A stretch of DNA of 62,056 nt, counting the filler, from Stramenopiles sp. TOSAG23-6 (taxonomy: Eukaryota): assembly GCA_900128565.1 (NCBI GenBank). It is 15 parts of 15 records of this genome, joined end to end, with 100 filler letters (N's around TTAATTAATTAA, not from the genome) between each part and the next. Parts side by side here need not be neighbours in the genome. Positions count along the whole stretch, not along the records: positions 4,171 to 8,238 come from LT637278.1; positions 8,339 to 12,406 come from LT637279.1; positions 12,507 to 16,570 come from LT637280.1; positions 16,671 to 20,726 come from LT637281.1; positions 20,827 to 24,879 come from LT637282.1; positions 24,980 to 29,026 come from LT637283.1; positions 29,127 to 33,163 come from LT637285.1; positions 33,264 to 37,295 come from LT637286.1; 7 more parts are not named here. One strand, given 5' to 3'. Positions 5,170-49,837 of this stretch are shown in pieces. Under the pieces are notes generated by a model. The model saw nothing but the letters and a program-made list of their open reading frames with translations, was not told where the DNA came from and did not search any database. Made by a program: the position numbers and the translations under genes. Position 1 is the first letter of the stretch, and each line of letters begins with the position of its first letter.

Positions 5170-7496
5170 TTAATCTTCTGCACCACATATATGCAATGCT
5201 GATTGAACTGTACCACTACATCGAGGTACTTTACTAATACGTTTTTGTTTATATTGGTTTATATAATTTTCATTGATTTTACGTTTTTCAATTTGTACTT
5301 TTTTCATACAAATTGAAAGTTTTTCAAAATTTTCAGGATAAAATACATCAACACAATTTCCTAAATGTTTGTATATAAAACGGCTCAATCGTCTCATATT
5401 TGTCCCTTGACCATGTACTAATACTACACTACTAGGTTTAGTATACCGAATGAATCTCATAATACCTTCATGAGTTGTAAAAAATATTACAAAAATTTGA
5501 TTTTTTTTGTTAGAATTTTGTACGAAAAAAAAAAAAAAAATTGAAANTTNAAAATTTTGAAAAAAAAATAAATTCGAAATTCATGATGAAAACGTACATG
5601 GTCTGTATGATTGCTCCATCCACTACTGATTTCTATATAACAACGTAATTTTATATTCTTTCCAGATGGCAATTGAATAGTTTTATATGGTAAATGTGAA
5701 AATTGATTTTTTTGAGTATCCATTTGAAGATTGCATTTAATTTTTGCATTGAGTGCATTCAGAGATTTTGATAATCCTGCTAATTTATATGCAACTGTAC
5801 CTGCTGCACTATACCCTGGTAAAATGATCATTGTTGTAGGATCTTGACCCCATCGTTCAAGTGCCTGTAATGCTGTGCCATTTTCTAATGTTTTTGGCCC
5901 GGCAAACAAAACTTGTGGAGATGTTTCAAGATTTGTTTCGGAGTTTTTTTCAAGATTTTTTAAAACGTGTGGAGATGTTTCAAGATTTTTTTCGGAGTTT
6001 TTTCTATAATATTTGTTATGAAATCCATAAAATGGTTTTAATTTCTGTAATGATAATGTAGTTGCATCAATAGTTTCATCATTTTTTGTATGTTTTGCAT
6101 TTTTTGTATTTTCATCATTTCTTGTATTTTTTATATTTTTTGTATTTTCATCATCTTTTGTATTTCTTGTATTTTTTGTATTTTCATCATCAATATCTGT
6201 TAAAACATGCTTCATAGGAGTAGGTTTGTGTCTATTCCATCGTTCAAATACATGATATAATTTCATTGCTTTTTGACTCAACACACCCGACACATATAAT
6301 GGCACATTTACACGAAATCTACTAAAATATTTACCTAATAAAATTGACATGGGTTGAATGCATCCAGTAGCACTACAAGCCACTAAAACACGACCTTTAT
6401 TCATATTTGTATTACATTTTGTATTTATATCAAATTTTGTATTATTTTGTCGTACATTCGAACACACATCTCCAACAACATTAGAATATACTTTGTTAAT
6501 AAAATTTCTATTTCGATGCAACCTAGATGCATGTATTTTGGAAAAATATTTCAAAAAAAATCTAAAAAAATGTGTTAGGTACAAAATTTCGTACGAAAAA
6601 AAAAACAAAAAAAAATTAAAACATACATGTGTTGCCATACTAAATGTTGCCTCACTAATGAGAACATCAGGACGTAATGGTGTATGTATTGGTACAAAAG
6701 CAGAACCTAAATGTGAATCCATTTGCATATCATAGTCTCCAGTATAAAGCACAGTTTGATTAGATTGTAGACATTCTATATAAAACATACAAGCACCTAA
6801 TGCATGTCCTGCATAATACGCCGTTATTTTTATATCATCAATAATAATAGAACCTTTTGTATTCAATTCAATCGTTTTGACTTTTGATAAACATGATTGT
6901 ATATCTTCAATAGAGTAAAAATTAGATTCAGACTCTCCAAAACGACGGACATGCAAATCACGATAATCATTGAGAATAAGACGCGATATTTCTTTCGTTG
7001 GTTCAGTCATGAGAATTGGTCCTTGATATCCATGTTTTTCAGTGTATCTAGGCAATGCACCCACATGATCGAGATGATAATGGGTCACTAAAACACAGCT
7101 AATACGTAAAGAAGAACAACGCGTAAAGTCAGGGTAAATGTCACCTACAGACTTTTTTGTATGACAACCACAATCAAGCATGATGCTACGCCTGTTGTTT
7201 TTCCCGCCTACAGTCACGAGAATACATGAACGTCCAACGTCTTGTCCACCACCAAGTGGGAGTATATCAATCGTAGGGTGTGCAGATTTGTTTACTGGAC
7301 GAAAATTTGTCTCCTCGTTTTGACTCGTGGTAGAATTTCCATTTTCATTAGTTCCACTTGTCGTTCTATTTTCTACCTTTCGCTGACGTTTCTGTACCTT
7401 TCCACTTTGACTTACACCCTTCAATGATACATTCCGCTTGCGTTTGTCTGTTTTACTAATTGGTACTACTTTCCAACGAAACGATTTCATTGACAA
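5170..7496 (-). CDS. INTS11: Integrator subunit 11 / CPSF73-family metallo-beta-lactamase beta-CASP nuclease; introns 6531-6626 and 5470-5597
   Basis: PLGGGQDVGRSCILV, MLDCGCH, THYHLDHVGALP, AGHALGA, YTGDY. After splicing, SNHTDH|EGIMRFI..PSSVVLVHG matches the family SAHADAKGIM..LVHGE spacing. Confidence 0.8.
5470..5597 (-). mobile_element. Introner-like element / GT-AT intron (INTS11)
   Basis: CAT|GTACGTTTT...TTACAACTCAT|GAAGGT; removal joins two ORFs in frame. Confidence 0.85.
6531..6626 (-). mobile_element. Introner-like element / GT-AT intron (INTS11), 96 nt, no in-frame stop
   Basis: CAT|GTATGTTTT...TACGAAATTTTGTACCTAAC...CCAAAATACAT|GCA. Confidence 0.85.
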
Positions 7497-7688
7497 TAAT
7501 TGAAATTTGTAGTCTACTATTGGAGAGTGTTTTTGTTTCGACTACTTCAAAATGACAAATTTGGCCGGATTGATTGATGGTCCCGGGTAACTTTTGGCCA
7601 TTTTTTTGATATAGTCAACATTCTCTCTCGAGTACGTATCGATACCTAAATGAAATTGTGTGACTTGCTATAAAATAATCTAGAGATA

Positions 7689-8238
7689 ATGCAACAAGAA
7701 ATACCCGACGATTTACTATGCCCTATTACACGAGACTTATTCAAGGATCCTGTGTTTGCTGCGGATGGTCACACGTATGAACGATCTGCAATTTTGCGCC
7801 ACTTTCAAACAAAAAGTACGTCACCTTATACAAATGAAGTGTTGCCGCATTTAAATCTTGTGCCAAACTGTCTTTGTAAATCTCAATGTATGGAATTTAG
7901 ACAACAACAAGATAAAAAAAGCATTGCTGTCGATACACTGTTCTTAAAATGCTTTCAAGCGAAAAATTCAACAGACATTATTAAGGCTATTACACAAATG
8001 ATTGAGTTGGTCACAGAGTCTGATTCGTGCACTCTTCCAATGTCAAGTCTTGATAAGTTGAAATCAATTTTTGTAGGTGCTAATAATTATACAAAAGAAG
8101 TTGAATCTGCATTGGGCGCACTACAAATGATGTGTAAAGCAAAAAATGATAAAGGATTTCAAAAACTTGTGAAAATAAGAGAAATGAGAAAAGTCAATGA
8201 AGAATCCGTTGTTGTTTTAGAAGGCAAGATAAAAGAGG
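7689..8238 (+). CDS. U-box domain protein (3'-partial)
   Basis: IPDDLLCPITRDLFKDPVFAADGHTYERSAI...TSPYTNEVL....LVPN. Confidence 0.9.
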
Positions 8239-8338
8239 NNNNNNNNNNNNNNNNNNNNNNNNNNNNNNNNNNNNNNNNNNNNTTAATTAATTAANNNNNN
8301 NNNNNNNNNNNNNNNNNNNNNNNNNNNNNNNNNNNNNN

Positions 8339-10157
8339 CAACATTAGCTATCACAACACTATTAAAAACAGGGAGTGAAAATTCTATTGATAGACTCATT
8401 AAACAAATTTCATCCTTTATGTCAGAAATTGACGATGAGCATAAAATTCGTGTCGTGGCAGCCATTGAAGAATTAGTGGTGAAGTACCCGAATAAACACA
8501 TTATATTGCTGAATTTTCTATCGAGTATATTACGCGAGGAAGGCGGTTTTCAATTTAAAAGCTCTATTGTTAGTGCTATTCTACGTGTGATGGACATCAT
8601 CCCAGAAACAAAAGAATCTGCTTTATTCCATTTGTGTGAATTTATAGAAGATTGCGAATTTCCTAGATTATCAACGCGGATTCTATATCTACTTGGGGAA
8701 AAAGCCCCATTAACCAGAGCACCAGAAAAATATGTTCGTTTCGTATTTAATCGTGTGATTCTCGAAAAGCCTCTAGTGTATGTTTTATTCATTTCGTACG
8801 AAATTTCGTACCTAACAATCATCCATTTCAAAATTTATTTCAAAATTTATTTCAAAATTTATTTTTTTGTACTTATACCTAATCCAAAATATTTTGTACC
8901 TAACAATTTTTGTTTTTGAAAAATATTTTTTTACAGGTTATTCGTGCTGCTGCAGTTTCGGCGTTAGCGAAATTTGGTTCTAAAGTAGAAAGTTTACGCC
9001 CCTCAATAGTTGTTCTCTTACGTCGTTGTCTTCATGATGAAGACAATGAAGTACGAGACCGTGCAACAGTAGCTTACAATCTTTTGGAAAGTCATTCTCA
9101 TTTAGCATCACAATTTGTTGTGAACGATTTATCGCAGAGCTCTGAAGCACTCGGTCGCTCTCTCCAAATATATTACGCTCATCCAGTACCCGGTCCTATT
9201 ACTTTAGAATCTCTCCCTGTTGTGGAGGAACGCGTAGTAGCACCTGTGATGACGAAAAAAGATATGGAAGAGTCACATCTTTTAGGTACTTCATCTTCTA
9301 TGAAAACCACATCATCCTCTGCGAAGGTTGCAAGTGAAGAGCTAAAGAAACTGTATGAAATTCCTCAATTTGCAAAGGTTGGTACATTGGTTAAATCTTG
9401 TAAAGCTGTTGCTTTATCTGCTGCTGAAAGTGAGTTCGTCGTTCATTGCACAAAATATATATTTGAAAATCATGTGGTATTTGCCTTTGGGATCACAAAC
9501 ACTCTTGATGATGCCTTATTGGAAAATGCCGAGGTCAGAATGGAAGCGGATGATGACGAAGTCTTTCCAAATGGAGGTGAACCAAAAGAATGTATTCCTG
9601 CAGCTCGGTGTTTATTTAACACGAAATCTATTTCTTATGTCATGATGCAACGTAATCCAGATGCATTTGACAGTGTTAATTTTGCTTGTGACCTTCATTT
9701 TACTAGTCGAGATATTGACCCTGATTCTGGCGAACTTGATGAAGATGAAGAAGGTGAAAAAGATGAATTTCCTCTTGATAGTTTGAATGTAACACTTGCG
9801 GATTTTATAGTTGAAACCTATGTACCTAAAGGAGAATTCCGAAAAACATGGGAGGAAATGGGAAAAGCTGGAGAAGTTCTTGAAAAATTTGCGCTAGATT
9901 TTAAGACACTTCAAATTGGTGTGAGTAAAATTATCGATCAGCTTGGGATGGGAGTTTGTGAAAGGTCGGATAATGTTCCTGCGGATGCTCGGTCACATAA
10001 TATTTTTCTAGCGGGGACACTATCAGGAACTGCTCAAGTACAGCTTTTGTTACGAGGTAACCTTAGTGTTGGTTCTTCTGGTTGTGTGCTAAAAGTGATG
10101 GTTAGATCTGAGGATCCTACTATCAGCCAGTTGGTGATTGACTCAATTAGTTCATAA
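8339..10157 (+). CDS. COPG: Coatomer subunit gamma (5'-partial); intron 8778-8941
   Basis: [70 protein letters not shown]; appendage domain at the C-terminus. Confidence 0.95.
8778..8941 (+). mobile_element. Introner-like element / probable GT-AT intron (gamma-COP)
   Basis: GT|GTATGTTTT...GTACGAAATTTCGTACCTAAC...ACAGGTTAT|T CGT gives ILEKPLVRAAAV. A GT-AG alternative (8776-8936) adds one residue. Confidence 0.75.
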
Positions 10158-13132: not shown

Positions 13133-16100
13133 ATGTCGCGTAAACAATTGGATTTCGCCGTAGTTGGTGCAGCTCTTGGCTCAGTTACAAATGATGCAAC
13201 TTCTGCCCATCAGGGAGGTAGTCAAGTTACTGCTTCGCCAGTTGACATAGATAGTAATACAGTTTCGTTAGATGGAGATACTGCCAATACTAATATATTA
13301 GATGTAAGTTCGTCTTTCCACCATAGAGATGATGTATACTATTACCGACGTGACCCCCCACTAAGTGCCTCCGAGAAAATGCTTTGTCGAGCTCAGTGGC
13401 TACGTTGGGTCAACTTTGTTGCCCAACGTAAAGTTGAATGGTCTCAACTCATTCGAGCTAATAGTCATTATGAGTATATCATATATAGAAGTTACTGGCG
13501 ACGCTGGATAATTTATTTACGCTGGTGGAGGGAAAATCAAAAGCATAGACGTCGTCTTTTACTTTGGGCGGAGGACAATGCGGTTAATATGTCCCAAAAA
13601 GTCGTGAAACGACGTTATTTTTTACGTCTCGCCCAAGCCGTTCATAACTCTCATATAAAATCTAGAAATAATATAAAAGCATTACAACATTGGGCTAATC
13701 ATCTGTGCCGTTCAATCTTTAGAAAGTGGCAGGNTTGTGTTACCAAAAGTTTGGAAGAAATTCATAAATCAGATGTTCTCCAAACAAATCATGACATTCG
13801 ACATAAACGTCTATTTATGAATATTTGGCGTGAATCATTTTTCAGTATATTAAAACGACGTAAGCAAAATAAAGCAGCATTTTGGCATAGATATAATACA
13901 ATTATGAACAAAACACTGTGCCAATGGCGTGAATATGTAAATTATAAAAAATATTATCAACAACTAGATAGAACTGCAACGATACATTATAAAATATCTC
14001 TGCTTCGATATACTTTTTCATGTCTTAGCCAAGGCATCAGAAAGAAACGCGCAATACAATGTATTGCTAATCGTGTTCGCTGTTGGATGAGATATGTACG
14101 TTTTCATTATAAATTTCAATTTTATTTTTTTCATACGAAATTTTGTACCTAACAAAAACTTTTGAGTGTGTTTTTTTTTTTCACAATACATGTATCTTTA
14201 TTGAATGCATTTATAACTTGGTCAGTTAATATAAAAAAGAAATTTCTTTTGACAACTCTGCAAAATATGGAAAATAGAATTATTATTAGACGAAAACAAG
14301 ATGTATTCCATACATGGTACGAATATTATAAGGAACAGCAATTGGAGTCAACTGCGAAAACCTTTTATAGCTGTAGGCGTAAGTACGTTTTCAAATTGAA
14401 TGTTTTACATCATTTTGTTTTTCATACGAAATTTCGTACCTAACGAATTTTTTGAACAAAAATAAAAAATATTTTTTCACAGTACAAACGTCAATGTTTA
14501 CGGGCCCTTCATTTTTATACAAAGAAAATACAACATAATGCCATGCAAATGAGATTAGCTGAAGTATATAGACGTAGAGCTTTACTTGGTGGAGCAATGA
14601 TTTTATGGCGAGTATGTATGTTTTAGGTTTTTTTCAATTTCGATTTTTTTTTCATACGAAATTTTACACCTAACGATTTTTTTTTGAAATATTTTTCCAA
14701 AATACATTTGTTTGTCGATGTACTTCTCCAGAAATAGATTCTAATTGTCAGAATATTCCCATGACTGATGACTATGAAAAAATGAATAAAAAGAAGAGCA
14801 TTAATAGAGATTTACTAATGAAAGTGAAGGTATCAGAAAAAAATATTCCTGGAAAAAATAAACAAACGCTCAAAGCAAGTTATATTAACACTTGGGATGA
14901 AATCCGTCAGAAGCAAAACATGACTGAAAGATTGTGTTATCGCAATCTCCTTCGACGCATCTTCAAACATTGGCAGATTGGTGCTGAGTGCTCTAAAGTA
15001 GATAGGCGTCGGATGTTGCAAGCTGAAGGACATGTACGTTTTCAAAAACCAATTTGGAATTTACTTGTTTTCATACGAAATTTTGTACCTAACAAAAAAA
15101 ATCGGAAAAAAAATATTTTCCGACAATACATTTTCATTTACGTCGGCTCTCGAAGGCATTAATTTCATGGCAGTATTGGAACAAAACAAGGCAGAAAAAA
15201 AATCTTTTGAAAAAACAGGCCATTAAACAATACCAGTATCATTTACTTGTTCAAACTTTACAAAGATGTACGNTTTANTTTTTTTTTNAANAAAAAAATC
15301 GAATTTATTTTCATACGAAATTTTGTACCTAACAAATTTTAGTTTTTTTGTTTTGAAATATTTTTTCATTATCCATGGAGATCTGCTGTAAAATTTATGA
15401 AGAGTCAATCTCAAATGATTTCTCTTGCCACTGAACATCATTATTGGTATCATGCTAATGTTAGATTTCGTCAATGGAGAGTCTGGGCAGCGAAACGGGT
15501 GATGAATCATCAGGAAAATCAACGTGCATACTCAATGTGGCGCAAAAACACTATCCATAGATATATTGATTTTTGGTACAATTATACAATTGCTAGACTG
15601 TCTCAACAAAAAGAGGAAACAAAACAATTAGAATGGGCTCAAGGTATACTTTTAAATAAACGTATATTCCGTATATTCTCTGCTTGGGCAGAGTGGAATC
15701 GCCATAGATTAGTAAAGAACGTTGCAAAAACAAGAGCAAATAGATACTTTGAAACGCGATTAAAAAAAAAGGTTTGGATCACGTGGCAGCTTTTTGTTTC
15801 CTCAATATTAGCGAGTAAATTGAGATTAGTACAATCCAAAAGGCTATGGAAAGTAAATGCACAAAAACGAGGTTTTGTGTGTCTACAAAAATATGTTTCT
15901 ATGCGCAAATCGATGCGATTCTGTCGCGAAAAGTCTAAGAAATTTCATATTTTGAATACACTGAATAAAGCTTTCTCTGGATGGAAACATCGAATAGAAC
16001 TGTGTCATTGGCAATTTGCTAGAGAGAGAGATGCACTAATGCGACGACGTCGTGCTTTACGGGAAGAAGGGGCGCGGCGTTGGTTGAGCTGGGGTCTCAG

Positions 16101-16747: not shown

Positions 16748-19700
16748 TTATAAAAGATGCCTTATATCATCTGTGGGCCAGGGACTCAATGGGGGTACTT
16801 TTGTTCCTGACCATATCTTATTAATATTTTTATTATGCTTTGCATATTTTCTCGATTTTCTCCTTCGAGACACTTTCTTCTTCAATTTCATTTTCTTACT
16901 ATTGAACCCAGAGTTTTCTTTCCAATCAGTTTCAGTCATAGTCTCTTCTTCACCAGGTAAATGATCTTCAACAGGATTACTTTGTATTGTATCACTAAGT
17001 AGAGCGTTCCATGTATTGTGGGGAAATATTTTAAAATTTTGAGAATCGTTAGCTATAAAATTTGGTACAAACAAAATTGGAGTACAATTCAAAAGAACGA
17101 ACGTACATTCTTCTTCATCGGCAGTTGATTTTTCTAAAACGCTCACTTTCAAATCCCAATACGATTTCGATGTTGAATCATTATTAACTGTAGCATCTTG
17201 TATATTAGTAGCATGTAGATTATTGACGTTATCTGTATACATCTGTCGAATCAACTGAGCTTGTTTTTCCACTTTCAATTTATATTTCTCAGCTTGCTTC
17301 AACAATTTTTTTTCATAAAATATCTTTAGCTCATTGTTTTGCTTCTCCCTATCAGAAAGTTTTGTTTTATTCCGCCGTAAAGCGAGTAAAACATTCTTCT
17401 CTTTCGAAGCGGCAGCAATCAATGGACTCAATGATTTTACAGCTGAAGATGAATGTATTTTGGAAAAATATTTGAAAAAAAAATCGTTAGGTACAAAATT
17501 TTTATAAAAAAAAATGTTCGAATTTGAAAAAAAAAAAAAAACATACATGTATTTGTTGATTACCTTTGTCCTTGGAGATATCTTTTTCAGATATTTCATA
17601 ATTTGAAGAATTTGCCAGCCGTTGAACTGCAACAGAAATTGTATTTTCGTGTTCATTTTTAAGATTTTTTTTGCGTAAATTACGTATCGTTTGTTCATCA
17701 TCAAGTTTTTGATTATGTAATTCTTGAATCATGTTTTTATCTATCAAAGATTGATTGTGCAAATCTTGAAAGTCGCGAAGAATCGTAGATTTTTCATCAG
17801 TGTATTTTTTCTTTAATTTGGTCTCTAATTCAATTTTCATTTTTTCGCATTCCCTTTCAAGTTTTATGTCAAATTCATTTTTCATTATTTTACGTTCTCT
17901 TTCAAATTTCGATTTCAATCTAAATTCAACTGTCTTTACATTGTCTTCTTTAACTTTGTCTTCTTGAGAACGGATTTTCGAAAGAGTTGCTGCATTTTCC
18001 TTTGTTGTGATCAACGTAGACTTAACATGGTTCAATTCCTTTGTTAATTCTCTAATATCCTTCACATGTTGCTCAGCCATCTCTTGAGTCTCTTTTCTGT
18101 GGTTCATGTATAGTGAAAAATATTTTTTTTTACGAAAAAAAATGATTAGGTACAAAACAATTTTACGAAAAAAAAAAAAAAATGATTAGGTACAAAAAAG
18201 GTTTTACAAAAAACAAATTTGGAATGAATAATAAAAACTTACATAGATAAACAGTCAATTACTTCAGAAAATTTTGCTTCCGCATCTGTTTGAATCTGTG
18301 ACGATCTGTCATCCATCTTTTGATTAATTTCGCGCAATCGATTTGACTCATCAATTAAAATTTGCATGTATTTTGGAAAAATATTTCAAAAAAAAAATCG
18401 TTAGGTACAAACTTTCGTACGAAAAATAAATTCGAAATTGAAAAAAAAAAAAAACATACATGTCTTCTTTATGTTTTCGCTGGATTTGCTCAATAATACC
18501 TTCCATGTCTCCACCGTTTTTACGTGTCATTTTTTTTATATACTGTTTGTGTTCTTCAATTGTCGCTAAATATTTTTGTTCTTGCTCATCCACTGCATTT
18601 TCATGCTTCTTCAACAATGCATCATACTGAGATTGCCAATACTGCGCCGCATCTCTAGCGATCTTAATTTCTTTTGTATGTAATTCTATTGTATCAGAAA
18701 CTGCTGCTGCTTTATCACGCTCAAAAAACGTTTTCATTTTATCATTTTCTACTTGAAAAGCTTGACTTAATTTTTCTTTCTCATCAGCAAAAGATGAATG
18801 CATATCCTCCTTTTCACGCGTAATTTGCTCGCAATGCCTCTTTAAGTGTGAATATTTTGTTTCTAATTCATTCATCCTTACCTCAAACATTTTCAAAGAT
18901 TTCGCAGAGTTTTCATCTACGTGTTTTTTTATTTCAAATGCATATACTTTTTCTTTTTCACGTATTTGAATTTTGTGTATTTCTCTCAATTCTGATAAAT
19001 CGTTCAAGTACTCTTCAGATTCTATTTTCTGGTAATGTTTAGTTTCACTTAATTGATTTTCTTTATGCCGTACATCAGCCATAATTGATTTCAATTCTAA
19101 TTCATGTTCCTCTTTCAATGTAGCTTCAGTTTCTCTTAGATCATTTCGAAATTTATCATTAACACACTGGATTTCACTTTTATATTTTTCATGAAGCTTT
19201 GAAATTTCAAGTTTTCGTTTATTTTCTATATCTGCACATTTTTCCATTTGAGATTCCAATGATTCCTCTAAAATTTGTATATTACTATTACCCAAGCGAA
19301 GATTTTCTTCAAAATCTAAGATTTCTTGTTTGAGATTATGAATAATTGTTTCATTTTCTTTTGTCATTTTCTTCAATTTATTTGCGTCTTCCTCTTCAGA
19401 GAGTACATGTATTGTAAAAAAAAATAAATTCGAAATATGTTAGGTACAAAATTTCGTACGAAAAAAAAAATTTGAAATTCATAATGAAAACACACTTTTC
19501 TCAATGCAGAAATCTCACTATTTAGTTTTTTTCTATCTGTTTCGAAGTCACGAGCAAGAATTTGTAATTCTTCATCATGTTCTTTTTGTATATTTGTGAC
19601 TTCGTTTCTGTGAATTTTATTGACTTCTTCATATTGAGCATTGATTGTTTCCTCACATTCGATTTTCCATTCTGTAACTTGTTTTTCATGATTTTTCATA

Positions 19701-32355: not shown

Positions 32356-32416
32356 AAACTAAAAAAAAAAAAAAAACTAAAAAAAAAAAATTTTGAAATA
32401 TTTTTCCAAAATACAT

Positions 32417-34404: not shown

Positions 34405-35982
34405 TATCTTCNACTGNTCATTCTTTATTAGGATGTGTACANATTGATTTGTACTTGTAAAGTTAGAAAGATAAGATAACAAGTTGTATGTAAATGATAA
34501 TGTGTTTGTTTGCAATGTTTTATATCCCCGCTACTAAAGTGGCCTTCGTTCGTAGTACTCAAAGGTACGAGTGACGAGAATATAGCGATGAGATGACACG
34601 TGTTGGTTTGACATTTTGAACACGAAATCTCTCGATTTCAATGTAAAAAATATGAATATGAAACACGTACAAATTTTTATTTTTCAATAATAATTGACAA
34701 TATCAAGGTACAAAAGAACACAAATTTTCGAGGACNAATTGTACGCGCATATACTACACTACATAGCCGTTATAGGCTAGTAGCCTATACCATTTAAAAA
34801 AAAAACACGAAAAATGGGGCAGTTCAATGTCTATATATAATTCAAGAAGTCACGCGCATGAGCCCTAACCCCTAACCCTAATTCTATATACCTTTGCATG
34901 AGNCAGTTGCAGCGGTTNACTCGTCTTCNAATAGTATCGTCTAACACTACACCCGGTATGTTTTGCTNATCCGCAATTATAATTCAGAATGTATATTAGG
35001 TAAAACAATTCCATGCACTTTTGCGTAAAGAACGAAAGGCTACACAAAATAAAGAATGAAAANTGTTTCACAGATTTGTTTATTTCATTTGCTCTTTACT
35101 ATTATAAAAATTAGGTAGAGTCTTTGTATTTGTTTTTCTATGCCATGAATATGTCGACATGGCAGACGAAGACATTGACATGTGTATANTCTCTGCTATA
35201 GGGCGTTTTTCCATATGAAGTCGTCCACCTAAAATCCTCGAAATAATCTTACCGTCACGTTGACCGTCCTTACCAATACGACTAATTTGTTGTAGGTTCC
35301 CACCAATCTTTGCCACCTTTTCGGCAATTTGTACTACAATCTGAGAAGTCTTTAGGGGGACTGACATACTATATAGTGTTGTTTTGTGTTGATATTGTGA
35401 AATAGTCTAGATTTCTTCAGAAATTCTCTATACTTTCTGTCGTAGTACAACAACACACACTTACTTGTTTTCGTGAAAAAAGCCACGCGTCAAAAAAATC
35501 AAAAATTTTGGCCACGAGTCACTCAAGAAATTTTAAATTCAAAACAGTCAGCGTGGAAAGATTTTTGTACCATTTTTTCATATATAAAATTTAAACTCTT
35601 TTGACTTCAAGCGAGTTCATCTAATCGGCCTCGAGGTCATCTTTCTTCTCCGTTGTTTCGCTGTGTTTAAATAAAATTGAAACTTCGCCGAGTGAATATG
35701 ACGGATGATGCAGGCATTGAAATTCATCCCAAGAGCGCCAATCCCGGTGCGGATCACCAGGTACGTAGCATNGTATTGTATTTACGCAAATAAGTGTCGT
35801 ATATTTTTGTTTTTGTAACACTTTTAAAGTTATTTTCACAGTACTTACTAGAATCATTTTCTTGTTTCTCGTTTATAGTAACGAAAGTTTGCAAAACCCT
35901 TTGATATTATGAATATTTTACTCATTTTCTCTTTCATTTATAAATATTTCATTAAATATAGGCAGCACTTGGACTTTTAAAC

Positions 35983-37240
35983 TTGTTCTCGTCACCTGCA
36001 TCAGATTCTCCGGAGCGAGACTCCAAAAGTACCGATGGGTCAACTCCCCCTTTATTAGTATCAGATTCTGCGAATGCTACTCCAAGTCCTGGAACATCAC
36101 CAGATTCTAGATCAAGTAGTATTACTCCACCTAAAAAGAATGCGAGTATCACACCAAATATTGATACTCAAGCTTGTCCGCCAAAACCCGTGTGCGTCAC
36201 GACGCAAAACGACCTACACNAATATANTNCACAGAATGTCGTATTAAATGACACGTGCGCGACTGATCCTACAGTCTCTCAGACAACAAAACAAAGTGCG
36301 ACGGAAACATTGAACCATTCAAATGATTCTCACATGCCGCATTTAGGTTCCAACGATTCAAATATGCCAAATGTAGGTATGTTTCAAACACAAAAATTGG
36401 TAGATAACCCTAATGTCAATGGTGTCAATTTACAACAAATATTTGAAAACTCTCAACGAACAAACTTAACACCAATAGCTGACCAAGAAGTGGCCCACTT
36501 CGATAAAATGCCTCCCAGACCATTTACAAACACATTTCAAAACCAACATCCAATGGAATATGCATCAATGAATGGAATACCAAATGTTGCAACAAGTTTT
36601 ATTCCAGTTCTGAATCAGAATTCCATGAACGGAAATTCCATGAGTTTTAATAATGCGAACCAACCCCCTACAAATTTTAATCCTCAATTTCCATTTTCAT
36701 CTTTTCCAAATGGAAGTATGATACATCCAACTAATGGGAATATGATTAATCCCATCATGATGCAACACCTCTTGAACCAAAATATAAATCCAAATTTTAT
36801 GCCTGTTCCAACCAAGATGCCAAATATGCCAAATGTAGATGTTGATCTTAGTAGATTGTGTTCATCGTTACCATCCTCATGCTTTAAGTCGCCTTTGCCT
36901 TTGAATGAAAACAGTCAAAATGCTCATAATGTAACATATCCTTTCCATGTATTACAATCTTCACAACTAAATAGCCCAATGAAACAATTTTCTCCAACAC
37001 AAACTCCTATACAAATTCCGAGTTTGTGTCCACAATCAACAAAACATGTATGTTCCATGTTTTTTGAAATTTTTTTGAAATTTTTTTGTAAAAATTTTTT
37101 TTTTTTATTTTTTACTAAATATGTTTTTTTTTTTAAATATTTTTCTACAATACAAGAGTTCCGAGCAATGGGTGCTTTGAGTAGTCTTAGAAACACAAAC
37201 TGGGCACAAGTAAAAGGAGGGCTTTCTGGTCTTGGTAGTA
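35983..37240 (+). CDS. Low-complexity N/P/Q/S-rich protein (start uncertain, 3'-partial); introner 37048-~37155 and another from 37241
   Basis: Long ORF containing family repeats. Confidence 0.55.
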
Positions 37241-39345: not shown

Positions 39346-41344
39346 ATGAAGAAACTTTTTGTGATAGATACTAAATATCATACAAAAGGAAAGGTAATTT
39401 TTGCTTGGCAAGGTGATGGCCATTTTCTTGCAACGTCAGGTGAAAATGGAATTGTTCACATCTTTGACCGACAAGGAAACGATGTGGATGAAATTGCTAT
39501 CCATGGAGATGTATGCACATCCTTAGAATGGGATAAAGATGGTCAATATTTAGCTGTTTTACAAAAAGGTAATGGCGTTGTTACCTTATGGAATCAATCC
39601 ACTCGAAGTATNCAAAAAATCGATACTAATTTAAAAAATCCGACATTTCTTTCTTGGTCCATAAACGGTCCTCAACTTGCTATTGGTACTGAAAAAGGGA
39701 ATTTATTATTATACAGAAAGGATACAAGACGGATGATACCTATATTAGGTAAACATACAAGACAAATATCATGTGGTTGTTGGTTATCGAATAATACATT
39801 AGCGTTAGGATCAGATGATGGGTCAGTTACGCTAAGCACATCGAATGGTGATACTTTGGATCATTTTGATGTTGGTGGACGTCCAGTGGCAATTCAATGT
39901 GTTGTACAAGACTCATCCTTAGGGTTGACACAAGACATTCAATCTACACAAAAAATAGATGAAAAAAAAGATTCTTTTGGTTCAGATTCAAGTGAAAATA
40001 ATACAGGAGTTGCAGTTACAATTGATTATAACAAAATAATGTTATATAAAGATTTAAGCCTAGGTAAGAAAGAGAAAAAAAGAAAACCAAAAGAAATTCA
40101 ATTTCAAAAACGTTATGGAGCAATTGTTAATTCTGTTTGGTATGCACAAAATTCTTTAATTGTCGCCTTTTCTAAAGGTACATTTTATTTATTTATTTTT
40201 TTTTGTATGAATTTGAATTTTTTTTTCATACGGAATTTCGTACCTAACAATTTTTTTTTTTTTTTTTTTTTTTTATTTTTTTTTTTTTTTTTTGTATGAG
40301 ATTTTTTTTTGTTTTTTTTCATACGAAATTTCGTACCTAATAAATTTTCAAAATTTTTAAAATTTTTTTCACAATATAGGATACACAATCATTGTCTCAA
40401 CAGAGGAGAATGACATTGGAACAGAACTGTTTTCATGGAAATTATTTGATGACCATTTGTATAACATTTGTTATAATACAAAATTAAAACGATTTGCTGC
40501 TCTTGGTGATGATTCATTGAAAATAATTGAATATAATGAAAATGAAAATATTTGGAAAAAAATATCAAATAATTCTATCCAATTAAAAAGTAAAAAATTT
40601 GGTACAGCAACTTCAATGTGTTTTTTTTTTTTTTTTCAATTTTTTTTTTTTTGTATGAATTTTTTTTTTTTTTTGAAAATTTTGTACCTAACAGATTTTC
40701 AAAATTTTTTTTGAAATATTTTTCCAAAATACATCGACTGGACAAATGATGGTCAGATTATTACACTTAGTACAAACACAGCCAATATTACATCATATGT
40801 TGCTACAATGTCAACTATAAATAGTACATTTGGTACAAAAATTTGTTATTGTTCATCATTACAAGAATTGGCTATTATTGACGTACGTTTTTAGTATGAA
40901 TTTTATTTTATTTTATTTTTTTTGTTTTTTGTTTTTTTTGTACGAAATTTTGTACCTAACAAAAAAAAAAAAAATATTTTTCACAAAATATGTACGACAA
41001 AACAATNNNNNNNNNNNNNNNNNNNNNNNNNNNNNNNNNNNNNNNNNNNNNNNNNNNNNNNNNNNNNNNNNNNNNNNNNNNNNNNNNNNNNNNNNNNNNN
41101 NNNNNNNNNNNNNNNNNNNNNNAATTTCGAAATTTTAAATTTTTTTTTTTTTTTTTTTTTTTGTACAACATTTTGTACCTAAACAACAAAAAAAAAATGA
41201 AATATTTGTTTACAATATTTGGGGTAGGAATGAATTCACATTTATGGTTTTATTATTGTACTAAAGGGGAATATAAGTTAGTGAGAGAGAGAGACTATCT
41301 TGGTACAGTTGAACATGTTTGTATTAGTACACAGTATGCAGCAG
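39346..41344 (+). CDS. WDR19: WD repeat protein 19 / IFT144 (3'-partial); introns 40178-40379 (GT-AG), 40618-40734 and 40883-40991 (GT-AT)
   Basis: MKKLF, FAWQGDGHFLA, LEWDKDG, QLAIGTEKGNLLLY....R.IPILGKHTRQI.CGCW, DWTNDGQ, VGMNSHLWFY, RDYLGTV. Confidence 0.9.
40178..40379 (+). mobile_element. Introner-like element forming a canonical GT-AG intron (AG duplication), duplicated core
   Basis: AAA G|GTACATTTT...CACAATATAG|GA TAC. Confidence 0.8.
40618..40734 (+). mobile_element. Introner-like element / GT-AT intron (WDR19)
   Basis: TCA AT|GTGTTTT...CCAAAATACAT|C GAC TGG gives SIDWTNDGQ. Confidence 0.85.
40883..40991 (+). mobile_element. Introner-like element / GT-AT intron (WDR19; 5' flank AC)
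   Basis: GAC|GTACGTTTT...CACAAAATAT|GTA CGA. Confidence 0.75.
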
Positions 41345-41612: not shown

Positions 41613-42982
41613 ATTACTTCAAAAAGTGAAAGTTGTGCAGTTACTGCAGTAGATTCCTCAATTCTATCGCGAATATCTTGAGATTTTTGTGATTCAATAG
41701 CTCGTATGAAATCAGAGGAACAATCTCTTTCAAGTAATACAGTTTCATGTATTCTGAAAAAATATTTTTTTTATAAAATTTGTTAGGTACACAATTTCGT
41801 ACGAAAAAAAATATAAATTTAAAATTAAGAAAAAAACTAAAACATACAGCTACCTCCGCCAGCTTTTGGTGATGGCGTCGTTGAAGTAAAAGACAGTTGT
41901 TGAAATGTTAGGGATTTTTTAGGAGTTTCCAAAGAAACCATATTCGAATCTGAATGTATTGTGAAAAAATATTAAAAAAAAAAAAAACTCAAATTTGTTA
42001 GGTACGAAATTTCGTATGAAAAAAAAATTAAATTAGAAATTCATATAAAACGTACATGTAATCGTCTTGACCTACGGCGACTATTTTTGTTATTCTTATT
42101 CACCCGTTTCGACATTGGAGTTGCAATTTCGATAAATTTTTCAACTTCATGTATTCAGGAAGAATATATCAAATTTGAAATTTGTTAGAGATGTTGCAAA
42201 ATTTGGATTATGTAAAACGTTAGGTACAAAATTTCGTATGAAACCAAAATTGATAATAAAAACGTACGTGAGAATTATCAATCAGAAAAATGTATGCGAC
42301 AATTGATATTAGAAGTACAATGTAAGCACTACTAAAATACAAATGAGTTCCAGTGCTATGAGCACCTTCTGTAGCAGCTTTCGTGATAACTTTTAAAATA
42401 CCCATGATAATCCCAGCAAAGCCAATTCCGCTGGATACTGCAGAAGTGTGCGCACCTGTACAACACCCTGCAATAGCAAACATGGAGCCTTGCACAACAG
42501 CACCACCAAATCCAACGAGAACGCCCATAACCATAATTTCCCAGAACTCTGATACACCATCTTTAGTTATTAAATATTGAGTAATAATACAAACACCAAC
42601 AAGCATAATTAGACCACCTACAACGTTAACTTTATGCGAAAACGGAAAGCCAAAAGCAGCACTAAGACCGAGAACAAAAATGTTCGGAGTAATTGAACCT
42701 GCCAGAATCCAAGGGATTGACCAGTCACCAAAAAGATGTTTGAAGGTATCAAAGCATTGAATATTATGTATGATATATATGAATTATAATAAATATGAAT
42801 AAATATAGCAATAATTTGGATGATGTATACGATGGTCCAAGAATTGTTACATACAGAAACGCATTGTATGGAGTCAATATCCCAATACCAAGAATAAAGA
42901 ACGCAAGTATTACAAAACGCTCTTTCTTTTTTGGAACGCTAGAAGTGTGCACTGGTATAGATAATGCTGGTGTTGATACCAT
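41613..42982 (-). CDS. Equilibrative nucleoside transporter (ENT/SLC29), 3'-partial; introns 42761-42854, 42149-42267, 41954-42055, 41747-41847
   Basis: FFILGIGILTPYNAFL|QCFDTF, GFGGAVVQGSMFAIAG, HTSAVSSGIGFAGI, LKVITKA. Confidence 0.85.
41747..42267 (-). mobile_element. Three introner-like GT-AT introns (41747-41847, 41954-42055, 42149-42267) in the ENT central loop
   Basis: GCT|GTATG..AATACAT|GAA; CAT|GTACG..AATACAT|TCA; CAC|GTACG..AATACAT|GAA. Confidence 0.8.
42761..42854 (-). other. GT-AT intron lacking the introner core
   Basis: TTT CT|GTATGTAAC...TACATAATAT|T CAA TGC restores PYNAFLQCFDTF, colinear with the ENT PWNAFITAVDYF pattern; no AG near the 3' end. Confidence 0.75.
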
Positions 42983-43359
42983 TTTAAAATGAATTACTGT
43001 AAAACCTTAGTAAAAAATGTTTTAGGTAATATCTCGCACCACTATACAGATACTGTAGAACACGACGTAGTATTTACAAACAGAACGGAATATAGTCAGT
43101 CCAAGTGTGTCAAATTCAATTTTTTGATATTTCGTGTAATTACCACTGAGCAAAGTGCAATTGCGTATTTCGTGTTACGACACCGACGCGATTGCCAATT
43201 GGTTTTTTTCTGAAATATTATTAAATTTTTCTAAAAGCAAATGTCGGACATCATCTATCTCCGAGAACCATAACGGTAAAGATACAAAGATACCATAACT
43301 TTTGTATCAGTATTTACATTATATATTAACAAGCCAACTCTTCGCAACATTAGAACAAT

Positions 43360-44782
43360 ATGCCAATACCTCTAAGTGATAAAGGCATGAAGTCACCGCG
43401 CCTGTCTTTGACTGCGAGTCAATCAAGTGTGCCGGTAAACAACGATTCTCAGCACGTCAGGGGTAAAAAAATTCTCATCGTTGACGACAATCATCAAGAA
43501 AGAGGAGAAACGCAAGCAAGGTTATTAAAAGCAGGCGTAAAAAGTGCCGTCCCTGTTGACTGCGCAGAAGCAGCTGCTTTATTTGCTGAGAAACGCCCCC
43601 TGCATACCATGTTTGATGTAGTCCTACTTGATTGGCGCTGTCCCAACGTTCAAGGAATTCCGTTTCCACGCCTATTATCGGATACATACAACGGTACTGA
43701 ATTACGTGTATTTATTACTGAACCCAATGCTCGGCCTCACCAGTCAAGAAATGGATTACATGTACTTTCCAAGCCCATCGTGATGCATGAACTCGAACAC
43801 TTGTGTTCTTTACCACCGCACACTTTATGGGGTCCTGTGCCTGCCGAACCTGTTCATCCACTCTACAGCCAAACTGCTCCAGGTTCACCTTCGCATTCTT
43901 TTAACATTGACTCATGGAGACAGACTAATCATGATATTGTACAGGACCAAAGAAGACAGTTGGCACCAGGTGCAGTTTATGCCGATGATGAGGAAACTGA
44001 ATATGAGAACCCTAAAAAATACCACCATGCAACTCCACACGATGAACCTCACGGGATGACCTTTGGAATGAACCATGACGAGCTCTCAAAGACAGAACAA
44101 AACATGATGCTTTTTGCCGCTTTTGCCTTTTTCATTGCTGCACTTGCATGTTTTATCAAGTATACTACGGAAGTTAAGAAAGACAACCCAAAGCATTTGG
44201 ATCTTTATGTTGCTACTACTGGAGTTTCAATGATGGCGTTCTGTGCATATCTTGCCAAATCAATTGGTCAAGGATATATCACTGTAAATGGTGTGACTAT
44301 CTGTCATGTTCGTTACATTGATTGGTTCTGTACCACACCACTCATGATTTACGATTTAACTGCTCTCGCTGGGGCTTCAACGGCTACATCAATTTTTACA
44401 ATCCTTGTTGATTTATGTATGATTGTTTTTGGAATTGTTGGAATGAGCTCGGCTGAATGGCGTCACAAATGTATCTGGTATTTTGTGGCGTGCGTTTTTT
44501 ATATCGTTCTCATTTACCTACTGTTGTCACCAATCCAATCCGCAGTGGACAGGGAAAAAACCGAAAGCAACACAAGATGTTTACGGCACATTGGTAACTA
44601 TGACAATTGTTTCATGGACAGCATATCCTTTGGTTACCTTGAATGGACCTAACGGTGTTTACGTTAATTCTAAGGACGTGGTTGGGTGTTACAGCCACCA
44701 CACAGAAGCTATTTTGATTGTATTCTTGGATCTTGTTTCAAAAATTGGTTTTGAGGCAATTCTCATATTTTCCGATTATTAA
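43360..44782 (+). CDS. Receiver (REC) domain - microbial (type-1) rhodopsin fusion, DTD motif; 1-nt frameshift at ~44555-44560
   Basis: ILIVDD...DVVLLDWRCP...VFIT...LSKP; helix C RYIDWFCTTPLMIYD; helix F SWTAYPLV; helix G LDLVSKIGF in the +1 frame. Confidence 0.85.
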
Positions 44783-45752: not shown

Positions 45753-45852
45753 GTACGTTTTCATTATGAATTTTAAATTTATTTTTTTTTCATACGAAAT
45801 TTTGTACCTAACAAAAAAAATGAAAAAAAAAAAATATTTTTTCACAATACAT
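45753..45852 (+). mobile_element. Introner-like element / GT-AT intron in an unidentified 3' gene fragment (another 3' end at ~45656-45709)
   Basis: CAT|GTACGTTTT...CACAATACAT|GTT. Confidence 0.75.
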
Positions 45853-47735: not shown

Positions 47736-48992
47736 TTATATACCTTTTGAGTAGCAACACTCTTTTTTGTGTGTACTCTTCCAATGTGTTTTTTGACACT
47801 TCTTTGAACAATACCACGGAAATTTACATGAATTACAAAAGAATAATTTAGTAATTTTGTCAACTTTACCACAATTCACACATTCTGAGTTGTCATTTTT
47901 CAGTATCTCGTTTTTTAGCATCTCATCTGTTGTATCTGTTATCTGTTTTTTTGCTTTCCTTATCCACTTTGCTCCTCTTTTATAATTTTTAGTAACGCCT
48001 TCACCATTATAATAACAGTTACCAAGATTACACTGTGCGTAGATAAAGCCTTGTTTTGCAGCTTTTGTATACCATTTTACAGCAGTTTTATAACATTTAG
48101 TGACTCCATTACCAGTATGATAAAATATTCCAAGATTATGCTGTGCGTTCATATTGCCTTGTTTTGCAGCTTTTGTATACCATTCAGCAGCAGTTTTATA
48201 ACATTTCATGACACCAAGACCCTTCATATATAAAGAACCAAGATTAAACTGTGCATCCATTTGCCCTTGTTTTGCAGCTTTTGTATACCATTTTACAGCA
48301 GTTTTATAACATTTAGTGACTCCATTACCAGTATGATAAAATATTCCAAGATTATGCTGTGCGTTCATATTGCCTTGTTTTGCAGCTTTTGTATACCATT
48401 TAGCAGCAGTTTTATAACATTTAGTCACACCTTGACCATTCTCATAAAATATTCCAAGATTATGCTGTGCATCCATATTGCCTTGTTTTGCAGCTTTTGT
48501 ATACCATTCAGCAGCAGTTTTATTACATTTAGTGACTCCATTACCTTCCTCCATATAAAATACACCAAGATTATACTGTGCGTTCACATGGCCTTGATTT
48601 GCAGCTTTTGCAAACCATTTTACAGCAGTGACTCCATTACCTTCCTCCTTATAAAATACACCAAGAATAAACTGTGCATCCATTTGCCCTTGATTTGCAG
48701 CTTTTGTATACCATTTTACAGCAGTTTTATAACATTTAGTGACTCCATTACCATTATGATAACATAAACCAAGATTAAACTGTGCGTCCATGTGGCCTTG
48801 ATTTGCAGCTTTTGTATACCATTTTACAGCAGTTTTATAACTTTTAATGACACCACCATCACCAGAATAATAAAATACACCAAGATTATACTGTGCGATC
48901 ATATGGCCTTGATTTGCATCTTCTGTAAACCATTCAGCGTTTGGCGCATACACATCTCCATAAACATCACCAAGATCTTTCAGTCCTTCCAT
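47736..48992 (-). CDS. Sel1-like repeat protein with C-terminal MYND zinc finger
   Basis: About nine 36-aa Sel1 repeats; CVNC...CNSCKFPWYCSKKCQKTHWKSTHKKEC. Confidence 0.92.
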   Translation of the reverse strand: MEGLKDLGDVYGDVYAPNAEWFTEDANQGHMIAQYNLGVFYYSGDGGVIKSYKTAVKWYTKAANQGHMDAQFNLGLCYHNGNGVTKCYKTAVKWYTKAANQGQMDAQFILGVFYKEEGNGVTAVKWFAKAANQGHVNAQYNLGVFYMEEGNGVTKCNKTAAEWYTKAAKQGNMDAQHNLGIFYENGQGVTKCYKTAAKWYTKAAKQGNMNAQHNLGIFYHTGNGVTKCYKTAVKWYTKAAKQGQMDAQFNLGSLYMKGLGVMKCYKTAAEWYTKAAKQGNMNAQHNLGIFYHTGNGVTKCYKTAVKWYTKAAKQGFIYAQCNLGNCYYNGEGVTKNYKRGAKWIRKAKKQITDTTDEMLKNEILKNDNSECVNCGKVDKITKLFFCNSCKFPWYCSKKCQKTHWKSTHKKECCYSKGI

Positions 48993-49401
48993 GTGGCCTT
49001 GTTTTGCAGCAATTCAGTAACACACCCGTATGTAAAAGTATCCTTCAAGATACGTGTAAAAAAAAGTTTTAAAAAACGATAAAATTCGGAGGCCGATTTG
49101 ATTAGTTTCTTCAAGTACCGGGTATCAAGAAAATTCGAAAAATTGTTTCAACTGGAAGTGACATAATTTTTTCGCATCTACAGTAAGTTCAAAAACATCT
49201 TCAAAGTTATGTGCATCTTCATCAGTAGTATATAGTTTTCTTTTGATTTTTATGTTAGGTATGAAATTTCATAGTAAAAAAAAAAAAAGGGTCAGATAAA
49301 ATCAAAAAAGTCGGATAAAAATGAAACTCAGATAAATAAAGGAAAATCATTCAAAACAAATAATGATGTATTCATACTGTTAATATTTAAAGTATATTTT
49401 A

Positions 49402-49630
49402 TCATAAATCAGCAATAAGAATTTCAACGGCACCATTAACATTACCATTACTAGAATGCAAAGCTTTCGCATTTTTTGATCTATCAGTAAATCCCATGCT
49501 AATCAATTGATCCATTGGTGAATCAACTTTGTGAGGTTTATTTGTGCTAGTCAGTGACGCAACAGCATCAGATATATTACTTGAACTATTTTTCAATGCA
49601 ATTTCGTTACGTCTTCTGTCCGTAAAACCC
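49402..49630 (-). CDS. Last exon of a protein with two UBA domains; introner 3' end at 49631-49684
   Basis: MGFTDRRRNEIAL..SSSNISDAV; QLISMGFTDRSKNAKALHSSNGNVNGAVEIL. Confidence 0.8.
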
Positions 49631-49837
49631 ATGTATTTTGGAAAAATATTTCAAAAAAAAAAACTAAAATTTGTTAGGTACAAANNNNNNNNNNNNNNNN
49701 NNNNNNNNNNNNNNNNNNNNNNNNNNNNTTAATTAATTAANNNNNNNNNNNNNNNNNNNNNNNNNNNNNNNNNNNNNNNNNNNNGTACAAAATTTTTATA
49801 AAAAAAAAATTCGAATTTGAAAAAAAATAAAACATAC

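Follow-up and report, generated by a model that had tools for sequence, protein, structure and literature searches.

A family of short repeated elements, which are likely to be transposon-derived introners that entered exons of numerous unrelated genes in the sense direction and are each spliced out with a YAT acceptor, was found in a 62,056-base stretch of DNA (the window) from Stramenopiles sp. TOSAG23-6 (GCA_900128565.1). An initial annotation of the window had proposed that this lineage was invaded by an element spliced with a GT donor and an AT acceptor. The proposal is supported by the reading frames that are joined when copies are removed, by junctions that are exact to the residue in comparison with homologues, by one join in RNA and by a match between the flank of the element and its last two bases. 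Introners and non-canonical transposon-derived introns are already known, and a YAT-acceptor family in stramenopiles is new among the literature found.

The window is a chain of 15 contigs, each of ~4.0-4.1 kb and ordered by falling length, that are joined by the spacer N44+TTAATTAATTAA+N44 (first at 4071-4170 and recurring every ~4.1 kb). Because the chain is artificial, the genes in it are not neighbours and gene neighbourhood is meaningless; the span of 5470-49837 originally given for the family locates the repeats correctly, but it covers concatenated ~4-kb contigs and not one locus. The penultimate piece duplicates its predecessor exactly (within 49785-62056), and the final piece carries the same open reading frames (ORFs) and repeats as the preceding pieces at an offset of 4124 bases; the unique sequence amounts to roughly 52.6 kb, with 26 unique contig ends. 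The DNA is eukaryotic, with a G+C content of about 33% and the standard code, and the host appears to be an uncultured marine stramenopile: the GPN1 ORF at 46389-47639 matches the EukProt protein GSMAST32...2514.1 (P0002; the GSMAST32 label is EukProt's own) apart from two internal deletions, the next relative being 68% identical, and brown-algal proteins were matched at 43-48% in the CDC45 search.

The repeat family

The motif GTAYGTTTT occurs 34 times in the window, compared with 2.4 expected occurrences and a maximum of 6 in 100 shuffles. A family profile built from 25 copies and searched against the window with nhmmer gave 45 matches (25 of which are training rows), all between 4030 and 49684, and 35 complete copies of 89-202 nucleotides (nt) were delimited in at least 12 genes on separate contigs, which agrees with the earlier count of about 45 full or partial copies of a ~90-200 nt element. 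The count of copies and termini with a profile, suggested at that time as a check, has thereby been made for the window, and GT stands at the start of all 35 complete copies. In pairwise comparisons, copies from unrelated genes are up to 0.90 identical over their full length, versus a shuffled maximum of 0.71 (median 0.65 versus 0.59), so that the copies are homologous repeat DNA and do not merely share splice signals; together with the 45 profile matches, this gives the similar introns at non-homologous positions by which introners are recognized. Every copy with a readable context lies on the coding strand of its gene and, as had been claimed, all three phases are used by the delimited insertions.

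Contigs often break within the element: profile matches contain 10 of the 26 unique ends, and four further ends were placed inside copies by reading the sequence, which is explained by a short-read assembly broken by a high-copy repeat; the density of ~45 copies per roughly 52.6 kb of unique sequence accounts for the shattering of the assembly into 4-kb contigs. The summed depth of element-bearing bins was 4,800-31,700, versus 0-8 (RNA) and 2-4.5 (DNA run) for unique bins, depths that sum over all contigs and organisms and are read only as 'very many copies'. A scan of JGI metagenomes with a 19-nt core returned four loci, one of which is a true copy: marine metagenome contig MDTB01012742.1 (locus L003; 3221 nt, 35% G+C) carries at 2476-2578 (-) a full copy with AT/AT borders that is frame-consistent in an ORF. 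The other three loci (L001, L002 and L004) were rejected as copies because the termini were missing and the profile matches were weak, and viral contigs gave no match to the core or to the 3' motif. Within the window, GTATGTTTTATA at 6790 was rejected as an intron, being coding sequence (GACMFYIE).

Anatomy of the element and its target site

In the layout obtained with a repeat finder and a motif scan, the element consists of 5' GTAYGTTTT, an A/T-rich stretch, the core TTTTCRTACGAAATTTYGTACCTAAC, a U-rich stretch and the 3' end (G)AAATATTTTTYCAMAATAC, followed by two bases. The first six bases are GTATGT in 18 of the complete copies, GTACGT in 11 (the copy starting at 5597 included) and other sequences in six, and the distance of a CTAAC motif from the 3' end is 32-49 nt (median 38). 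The terminal dinucleotide is AT in 29 copies, AA in three, AG in two and TT in one, with A at position -2 in 34/35 and usually C or T before it. The statement that there is no AG at the required acceptor therefore holds for 33/35 copies and fails for 8776-8936 and 40178-40379, which end in AG. Both of these belong to the four copies with two cores in one intron, the others being 18106-18242 and 31662-31856; their organization suggests insertion of element into element or in tandem.

The upstream flanking dinucleotide is AT in 25 copies, AA, AG and AC in two each, and TA, CT, GA and TT in one each. Among the 35 copies, 15 have C at exon position -3 and 22 have G at exon position +1, with a background of about 17% each, and the insertion site looks like C-AT-G; the resulting context (C/A)AT|GT...YAT|G parallels the usual MAG|GT...YAG|G. 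The flank is identical to the last two intron bases in 26/35 copies, comprising 23 AT/AT pairs as well as AA/AA at 14383, TT/TT at 21671 and AG/AG at 40178. These last three represent 3/6 of the copies that do not end in AT, and three such matched pairs are improbable by chance (p=0.0016; 200,000 permutations). The match fits a 2-bp target-site duplication, usually of AT as initially described, whose downstream duplicate is spliced out with the element. Because the dinucleotide AT is palindromic, its presence at both borders could stem either from a duplication or from an extended inverted repeat, ATGTAY...RTACAT. The short terminal inverted repeats (TIRs) noted previously are present, but they measure only about 6-7 nt (ATGTAY/RTACAT). 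The flank matches supply the target-site duplication and/or TIR that belongs to the definition of introners; however, with no transposase or autonomous copy seen and with so short a TIR, the designation as a miniature inverted-repeat transposable element (MITE) is an interpretation and not a demonstration. A Tc1/mariner-Stowaway MITE was rejected because it requires a TA duplication and the flank is AT in 25/35 and TA in only 1/35.

Coding continuity after removal of the copies

In the frame test, the sequence from GT to two bases past ATAC was removed and the longest upstream open frame was compared with the longest downstream one, for which the chance of agreement is one in three. The frames were joined at 28 of the 31 informative copies. 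This count leaves out the copy starting at 5597, whose anchor was not found (29/32, p=2e-11, when it is included), and the uninformative copies 40883, 45753 and 21268.

Seven junctions, in three genes, are residue-exact against homologues. In the gene for the HBS1-like GTPase, the exons on either side of the composite intron 31662-31856 (+, GT..AT) and of intron 32004-32124 (+, GT..AT) align to residues 280-301 (plus V302), 304-351 and 353-404 of mammalian Hbs1l (5lzw_jj), and each exon pair has one junction codon: AT|G encodes M and AT|T encodes I. INTS11 carries complete introns at 5470-5597 (-, GTACGT..AT, flank AT) and 6531-6626 (-, GT..AT, flank AT), and on their removal it is colinear with the related protein P0121 at NHTDH|EGIM and SMATH|ASRLH, respectively; P0121 has the same lineage-specific inserts. 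CDC45 is colinear with the 71%-identical relative P0242 at RREALA-N-YYSG, WSLYDS-M-FYSDY and ISAADAV-Y-CVSAL, which correspond to the complete intron 26087-26184 (-, GT..AT, flank GA; REKLS-E-YYSG), the diverged intron 25580-25747 (-, GT..AT; WSLYDS-M-LYSDY) and the complete intron 25213-25310 (-, GT..AT; AADAA-Y-CVSAL). The invariant motifs that removal of the element had been said to restore (GKSTV-M-GHLLY and ERGVT-I-DVG at the two HBS1 junctions, HWSLYDS-M-LYS and NHTDH|EGIM) all hold against homologues. The gene names themselves are supported by Pfam matches for CDC45, WDR19 (first propeller), ENT (nucleoside transporter), COG5, COPG and HBS1 (EF-Tu-type GTPase), and for INTS11 by homologues rather than by Pfam (no protein of the same organism was among the 120 matches listed), but the SFI1-like gene is without a Pfam match.

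RNA and read-contig evidence

Parts of the HBS1 contig are contained in 11 runs, which comprise three small DNA runs (one coded organism), seawater metagenomes and seawater metatranscriptomes. The contig was compared with three RNA runs and with run X4, guessed to be DNA; the RNA evidence covers the HBS1 contig only, and stretches of it without RNA cover are uninformative. Record 25 of the poly-A metatranscriptome X8 (408 nt) joins 31798-32001 directly to 32123-32276 and omits 32002-32122, which, given the duplicated AT, is intron 32004-32124 with the predicted splice 32001|32123. The splice expected across this intron is therefore found as an exact join in one poly-A contig, and it constitutes direct RNA proof of the removal of copies from mRNA for one junction only. 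The stretch 30207-30611 has zero depth in X8, as does the 5' coding part of HBS1, and it is covered in X4, which argues weakly against DNA carry-over. Other joints reported on the HBS1 contig (for example 31696 to 32935) were rejected as splices; among those listed, most run from one copy of the element to another and are repeat cross-matches.

Record 7 of X4 covers 32406-32582, then has 77 letters and then covers 32958-33040, where the gap in the window is 375 nt. Removal of introns 32586-32760 (+, GT..AT, flank AT) and 32842-32964 (+, GT..AT), with one AT kept per site, predicts 3+81-7=77 letters, as observed, with one mismatch. The record retains the 3' end of the upstream copy and differs from the window at 5 positions in 177 nt (about 97% identity). 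The depth of X4 is even, at 2-4.5, over both genes and the intergenic DNA, and X4 is probably a DNA run. Read as DNA, the record would represent a related strain with two empty sites; read as RNA, it would be a second spliced molecule, and either case favours an introner. The lack of these two copies in X4 record 7, from a run of guessed nature, may be a presence/absence polymorphism among close strains. The relatives' proteins P0242 and P0121 are colinear with the joined exons, a comparison at the protein level.

Proposed mechanism

The element is envisaged as a short non-autonomous mobile DNA that would be tolerated because each copy leaves as an intron. As its sequence shows, it brings a 5' splice site (GUAUGU or GUACGU), a motif resembling a branch site, (GUAC)CUAAC, a U-rich tract and a conserved 3' end, ..AAUAC. 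Its insertion would duplicate 2 bp of the target, in most cases AT within C-AT-G. Splicing takes the element together with the downstream duplicated dinucleotide as an intron GU...(Y)AU and restores the mRNA exactly, which is shown by RNA at one junction and by coding continuity at seven junctions and in 28/31 frames. The conserved A at -2 may be read as usual, with U, sometimes A, replacing G at -1; from general structural knowledge of 3' splice-site recognition, U(-1) possibly contacts G(+1).

Comparison with known systems

Introners are known in Micromonas, Aureococcus and many aquatic protists; they derive from non-autonomous DNA transposons and occur in hundreds to thousands of copies, with target-site duplications partly co-opted into splice sites (PMC9860276, PMC12130899). 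The present family is like these in having short, near-identical introns at unrelated positions, in sense orientation and with exact mRNA restoration, but those families are GY-AG, whereas 33/35 copies here lack AG and the duplicated AT itself is the acceptor. In the introner surveys, a 3' site had to be AG or AC, and others were dropped unless they were supported by RNA (PMC9860276, PMC12130899); the GY-AG or AT-AC sites that they demand are not those of this family, in which 3' AG occurs in only 2/35 copies and AT in 29/35. No similarity to the introner families described in the main texts of these surveys was noticed, and the main texts make no mention of marine stramenopile lineages; the supplementary tables lie outside this comparison and might list the host lineage.

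In the larvacean Fritillaria borealis, the splice sites of introners are the ends of non-autonomous DNA transposons, with AG/AC at 18% and AG/AT at 16%, and are handled by a U2-type spliceosome (10.1101/2025.08.15.670264). Non-GT/AG introns, a frequent AT 3' end and splice sites at transposon ends are shared with the present family; however, the 5' ends in Fritillaria are non-canonical, the termini are very diverse and U2AF duplications are implicated, whereas here a textbook 5' site and branch motif occur with one dominant terminus, and in a stramenopile protist rather than an animal. The introner elements of Amoebophrya have inverted repeats of 8-20 nt, direct repeats of 3-5 nt, no consistent termini and a predicted hairpin (PMC7789003). 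Amoebophrya, too, is a marine protist, and its non-canonical introns likewise recur with inverted repeats at their ends, direct repeats at their borders and no linked transposase, but the present family has an inverted repeat of about 6-7 nt, a 2-nt direct repeat and uniform GT..AT termini. A hairpin joining the ends was not found, as RNAalifold gave no consensus fold on the copies and a 4-bp end-to-end stem was not above shuffles. Physarum polycephalum has >20,000 U12-type introns, with GT-AT making up 17% of the non-canonical ones; its branch site lies 10-12 nt from the 3' end, compared with within about 45 nt generally, and the authors propose an origin from transposable elements with inverted repeats and a TA duplication (10.1101/2020.10.12.336362). 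The two cases share mass intron gain, a proposed transposon origin, inverted-repeat ends, a 2-bp duplication and an annotation that forced GY-AG, but RTATCYTT, TTTGA at 10-12 nt from the 3' end and TA in Physarum are replaced here by GTAYGT, CTAAC at 32-49 nt and AT.

No prior description of such an introner in stramenopiles was found in open-access papers and preprints, and the same literature yielded only the Physarum paper and unrelated surveys for GT-AT introns tied to transposons. The available text of marine stramenopile single-cell genome papers does not discuss splice sites or introners.

Alternative explanations

Several observations weigh against a transposon-derived introner with a YAT acceptor. 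The frame is not restored in 3/31 copies (32283; 41847, with flank CT; and 21410, which needs the removal of two more bases), the flank differs from the last two intron bases in 9/35, the TIR is very short, and no transposase or long autonomous copy was found in the window or in the metagenome and viral contig scans. RNA support is a single contig with one junction; that contig, whose first 24 letters are unplaced, also retains 59 nt from the 3' end of composite intron 31662-31856 and looks like a partly processed transcript. Record 7 of X4 comes from a run labelled 'DNA?' and may be a DNA allele. At the 23 AT/AT sites, including the RNA-supported junction, a GT..AT and an AT..AC register give the same mRNA. 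Not every YAT serves as an acceptor: splicing uses the one that comes first downstream of the U-rich tract TTTTTYC, and between CTAAC and the used site an unused YAT occurs in 31/35 introns (in a conserved AAATAT) and an unused YAG in 5/35, a choice that no RNA fold accounts for. The internal palindrome GTACGA/TYGTAC and the 4-bp end-to-end stem pair in 79.8% of cells, which is not above shuffles, and show no covariation.

With regard to splicing, the combination of 5' GUAUGU with CUAAC at 32-49 nt from the 3' end is a U2-type pattern, from which removal by the major U2-type spliceosome is probable. It is unlikely that the copies are U12-type (minor-spliceosome) introns whose number was raised by a transposon, along the lines suggested for Physarum. 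Such introns have a loosely specified 3' terminal dinucleotide with GT-AT as a known subtype, and AT, AA, AG and TT all occur here; GTAYGTTTT shares GTAT..TTT with RTATCCTTT, CCTAAC is one U short of CCTTAAC, and Physarum offers a precedent for a proposed transposon-driven expansion with GT-AT ends (10.1101/2020.10.12.336362). However, none of the 35 copies has a 5' site that matches RTATCCTT or RTATCTTT or carries C at position +5 or +6, GUAUGU and CUAAC are classic U2-type signals, the U12-type branch motif TTCCTTRAC is missing near the 3' end, the only conserved branch-like motif lying 32-49 nt upstream with no U12-like motif at 10-15 nt from the 3' end, and the window contains no small nuclear RNA gene (0 Rfam matches). 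A different register of the same family and the same mRNA, in which the major spliceosome removes an AT-AC intron AUGUAU...AAUAC, is distinctly improbable. A(+1) and C(-1) are an established compatible pair of intron ends, the bases before the final dinucleotide are ..AC in about 27-28/35 copies (..TC in 5597), and at the 23 AT/AT sites this register cannot be told from GT..AT. The GT..AT register is nevertheless favoured on sequence grounds, because GT is present in 35/35 copies whereas the flank is AT in only 25/35, because GUAUGU is a perfect 5' site and AUGUAU is not, and because the final AT (29/35) outlasts the decay of ATAC, as at 24674 (TTTT-AT), 5597 (CTC-AT), 15268 (ATCC-AT) and 40883 (AAAT-AT).

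The flank mismatches, the context that mirrors MAG|GT...YAG|G, the missing transposase and the short TIR could also be accommodated if the family were no DNA transposon but spread when the excised intron was reverse-spliced into transcripts at MAT|G and then copied back through reverse transcription and recombination, with the flanking AT as a site preference. This origin is unlikely, since matched non-AT pairs are predicted by duplication and not by site preference, and they are present in 3/6 of the non-AT-ending copies; moreover, the composite copies 8776, 18242, 31662 and 40178 resemble insertion of element into element. Programmed excision from DNA instead of RNA would resemble that of the internal eliminated sequences (IESs) of ciliates, which are excised between 2-bp direct repeats with restoration of the reading frame. 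Although X4, with its even intergenic cover, has a contig that precisely lacks two adjacent copies, the strain difference of 5/177 positions explains that contig equally well, the spliceosomal signals of the element are complete and its depth is in the thousands in RNA runs (summed). In X8 record 25, furthermore, intron is contiguous with exon in poly-A RNA, so the element is transcribed, and excision from DNA is very unlikely. The notion that the copies are unspliced MITEs in pseudogenes, or an assembly artefact, has little beyond the fragmentary assembly and at least one contig that looks chimeric (the HBS1 sense ends after 32282 and RNA contigs diverge at 32277) to commend it; against the restored frames, the single-copy essential genes affected, the RNA join and the presence of the element in the independent metagenome contig L003 and in four independent runs, it is scarcely credible.

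Consequences for annotation and splicing

The public gene models of the organism force GT-AG and thereby corrupt proteins. The CDC45 model P0241 reads ..KLSEYVCIYSFHFC, 31 nt into the intron starting at 26184, then uses a forced GT..AG (GTTTATTT...CACAAG) that deletes 11 real residues (YYSGGTLASQG), and ends with ..DSMYVFIMNF inside the intron starting at 25747. The GPN1 model P0002 has two spurious internal deletions from an uninterrupted ORF. Proteomes and phylogenomic matrices built from such assemblies will inherit these errors, and annotation-based introner surveys, as far as their available text describes them, would miss a GT..AT family.

With a GT..AT family, the known range of non-canonical introners would come to include stramenopiles and, with them, abundant grazers of the ocean, the 2-bp duplication of the element itself acting as acceptor. 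The family would also be a natural experiment on 3' splice-site recognition, in which the 5' site, branch motif, U-tract and A(-2) are ordinary and only the last base differs; its interpretation is easier than in Fritillaria or Amoebophrya, in which all parts vary. Every definable intron in the window is a member of the family, which may be the default intron type of the organism. It is conceivable, although somewhat less than an even prospect, that YAU has replaced YAG as the default acceptor of the major spliceosome and that nearly all introns are one introner, at about one per kb and in tens of thousands of copies. If so, this would be the first eukaryote known with textbook 5' and branch sites but a non-AG 3' site as the rule, and matching changes would be expected in U2AF35, Prp8 or step-2 factors.

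Further copies in the window

The complete copies not yet described follow in window order, the introns being GT..AT with flank AT unless stated otherwise. A composite two-core intron in COPG (8776-8936, +) is GT..AG with flank TA. Complete introns on the plus strand lie at 14096-14191, 14383-14487 (GT..AA with flank AA, a matched non-AT pair), 14616-14707 and 15034-15131, and another at 15268-15376 (+) contains single Ns and ends GT..AT with 3' ..ATCC-AT. On the minus strand, complete introns at 17011-17106 and 17453-17546 are followed by the composite 18106-18242, with two CCTAAT cores and GTAAGT..AT ends, and by complete introns at 18366-18459 and 19407-19495 (GTGTGT..AT, flank AA). Also on the minus strand are the complete intron 21159-21268 (GT..AA), one of the copies uninformative in the frame test, the exceptional complete copy 21322-21410 (GT..AT), whose frames fit only with 2 extra nt removed, and complete introns at 21577-21671 (GT..TT with flank TT, a matched non-AT pair), 23840-23943 and 24329-24428. 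The diverged copy 24560-24674 (-) ends GT..AT with ATAC degraded to TTTT, and a complete element at a contig end (24782-24878, -) has its 5' flank cut off.

The core-less copy 32283-32416 (+; GT..AT, flank AG) is an exception at which the frames do not join. A diverged intron at 37048-37155 (+) is GT..AA with flank AT. WDR19 contains a composite intron at 40178-40379 (+; GT..AG with flank AG, a matched non-AT pair) and introns at 40618-40734 (+; GTGTTT..AT, flank AT) and 40883-40991 (+; GT..AT, flank AC), the last uninformative in the frame test and followed by an N gap. At 41747-41847 (-) lies an exceptional complete copy, GT..AT with flank CT, whose frames do not join; the nucleoside transporter gene has complete introns at 41954-42055 (-; GT..AT, flank AT) and 42149-42267 (-; GT..AT, flank AC), and a complete copy at 45753-45852 (+; GT..AT, flank AT) is uninformative in the frame test.

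Partial copies were recognized by profile match at 4030-4070 (+, cut by a contig end), 20827-20894 (-, cut by a contig start), 24980-25067 (-, a 5' part in CDC45 cut by a contig start), 28947-29024 (-, a 3' part at a contig end), 29127-29253 (-, a 5' part in a U-box gene cut by a contig start), 33072-33163 (+, a 5' part cut by a contig end), 41527-41612 (-, a 5' part cut by a contig start), 45656-45709 (+, a 3' part at a contig start) and 49631-49684 (-, a 3' part at a contig end). In addition, a 3' part at a contig start (12507-12561, +) ends ..ATAC-AT, a 5' part cut by a contig end (37242-37295, +) was found by reading, and WDR19 has a 3' part after an N gap (41123-41219, +), ending ..ATAT-TT by frame, and a 5' part cut by a contig end (41345-41426, +), found with the GTAYGTTTT scan and by reading. 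The cut-off 5' part at the start of the COG5 contig (49785-49837, -) has the same element start again at 53961 and 58085.

Other observations

In the region 32277-33163 of the HBS1 contig, GTPase coding ends after HBS1 exon 3 (..KGEFEAG; coding sense stops after 32282). The RNA contigs X7 record 19 and X8 record 25 cease to match at 32276, the latter with 25 more unmatched letters. A chimeric join at the core-less copy 32283-32416 is one possible cause; alternatively, the genuine next exon of HBS1 may lie elsewhere.

Telomere-type repeats, (TTAGGG)2 or longer, occur eight times in the window versus 0 expected, at positions including 31053-31064, 31479-31490, 32863-32886, 33509-33520, 33911-33922 and 34870-34881. 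They sit inside intron 32842-32964, as an internal (TTAGGG)4, and within ORFs, where CCCTAA is read as NPNPNP, namely in the N-terminal region of HBS1 and in a RING/TRAF-type protein at 33361-34530. These repeats could reflect healing of breaks by telomerase, for example at transposon excision sites.

Two stretches, 4171-4925 (+) and 47736-49013 (-), encode proteins of 36-residue (108-nt) Sel1-like repeats (YNLG..Y..G.GV...) with a cysteine-rich MYND-like end, both being putative domains, and these repeats are visible as the tandem DNA repeats D3, D13 and D14. The ORF at 43354-44652 (+) has an unusual arrangement, in which a response-regulator receiver domain (E=1.7e-5, below the Pfam cut-off) is N-terminal to a bacteriorhodopsin-like domain (E=3e-27).

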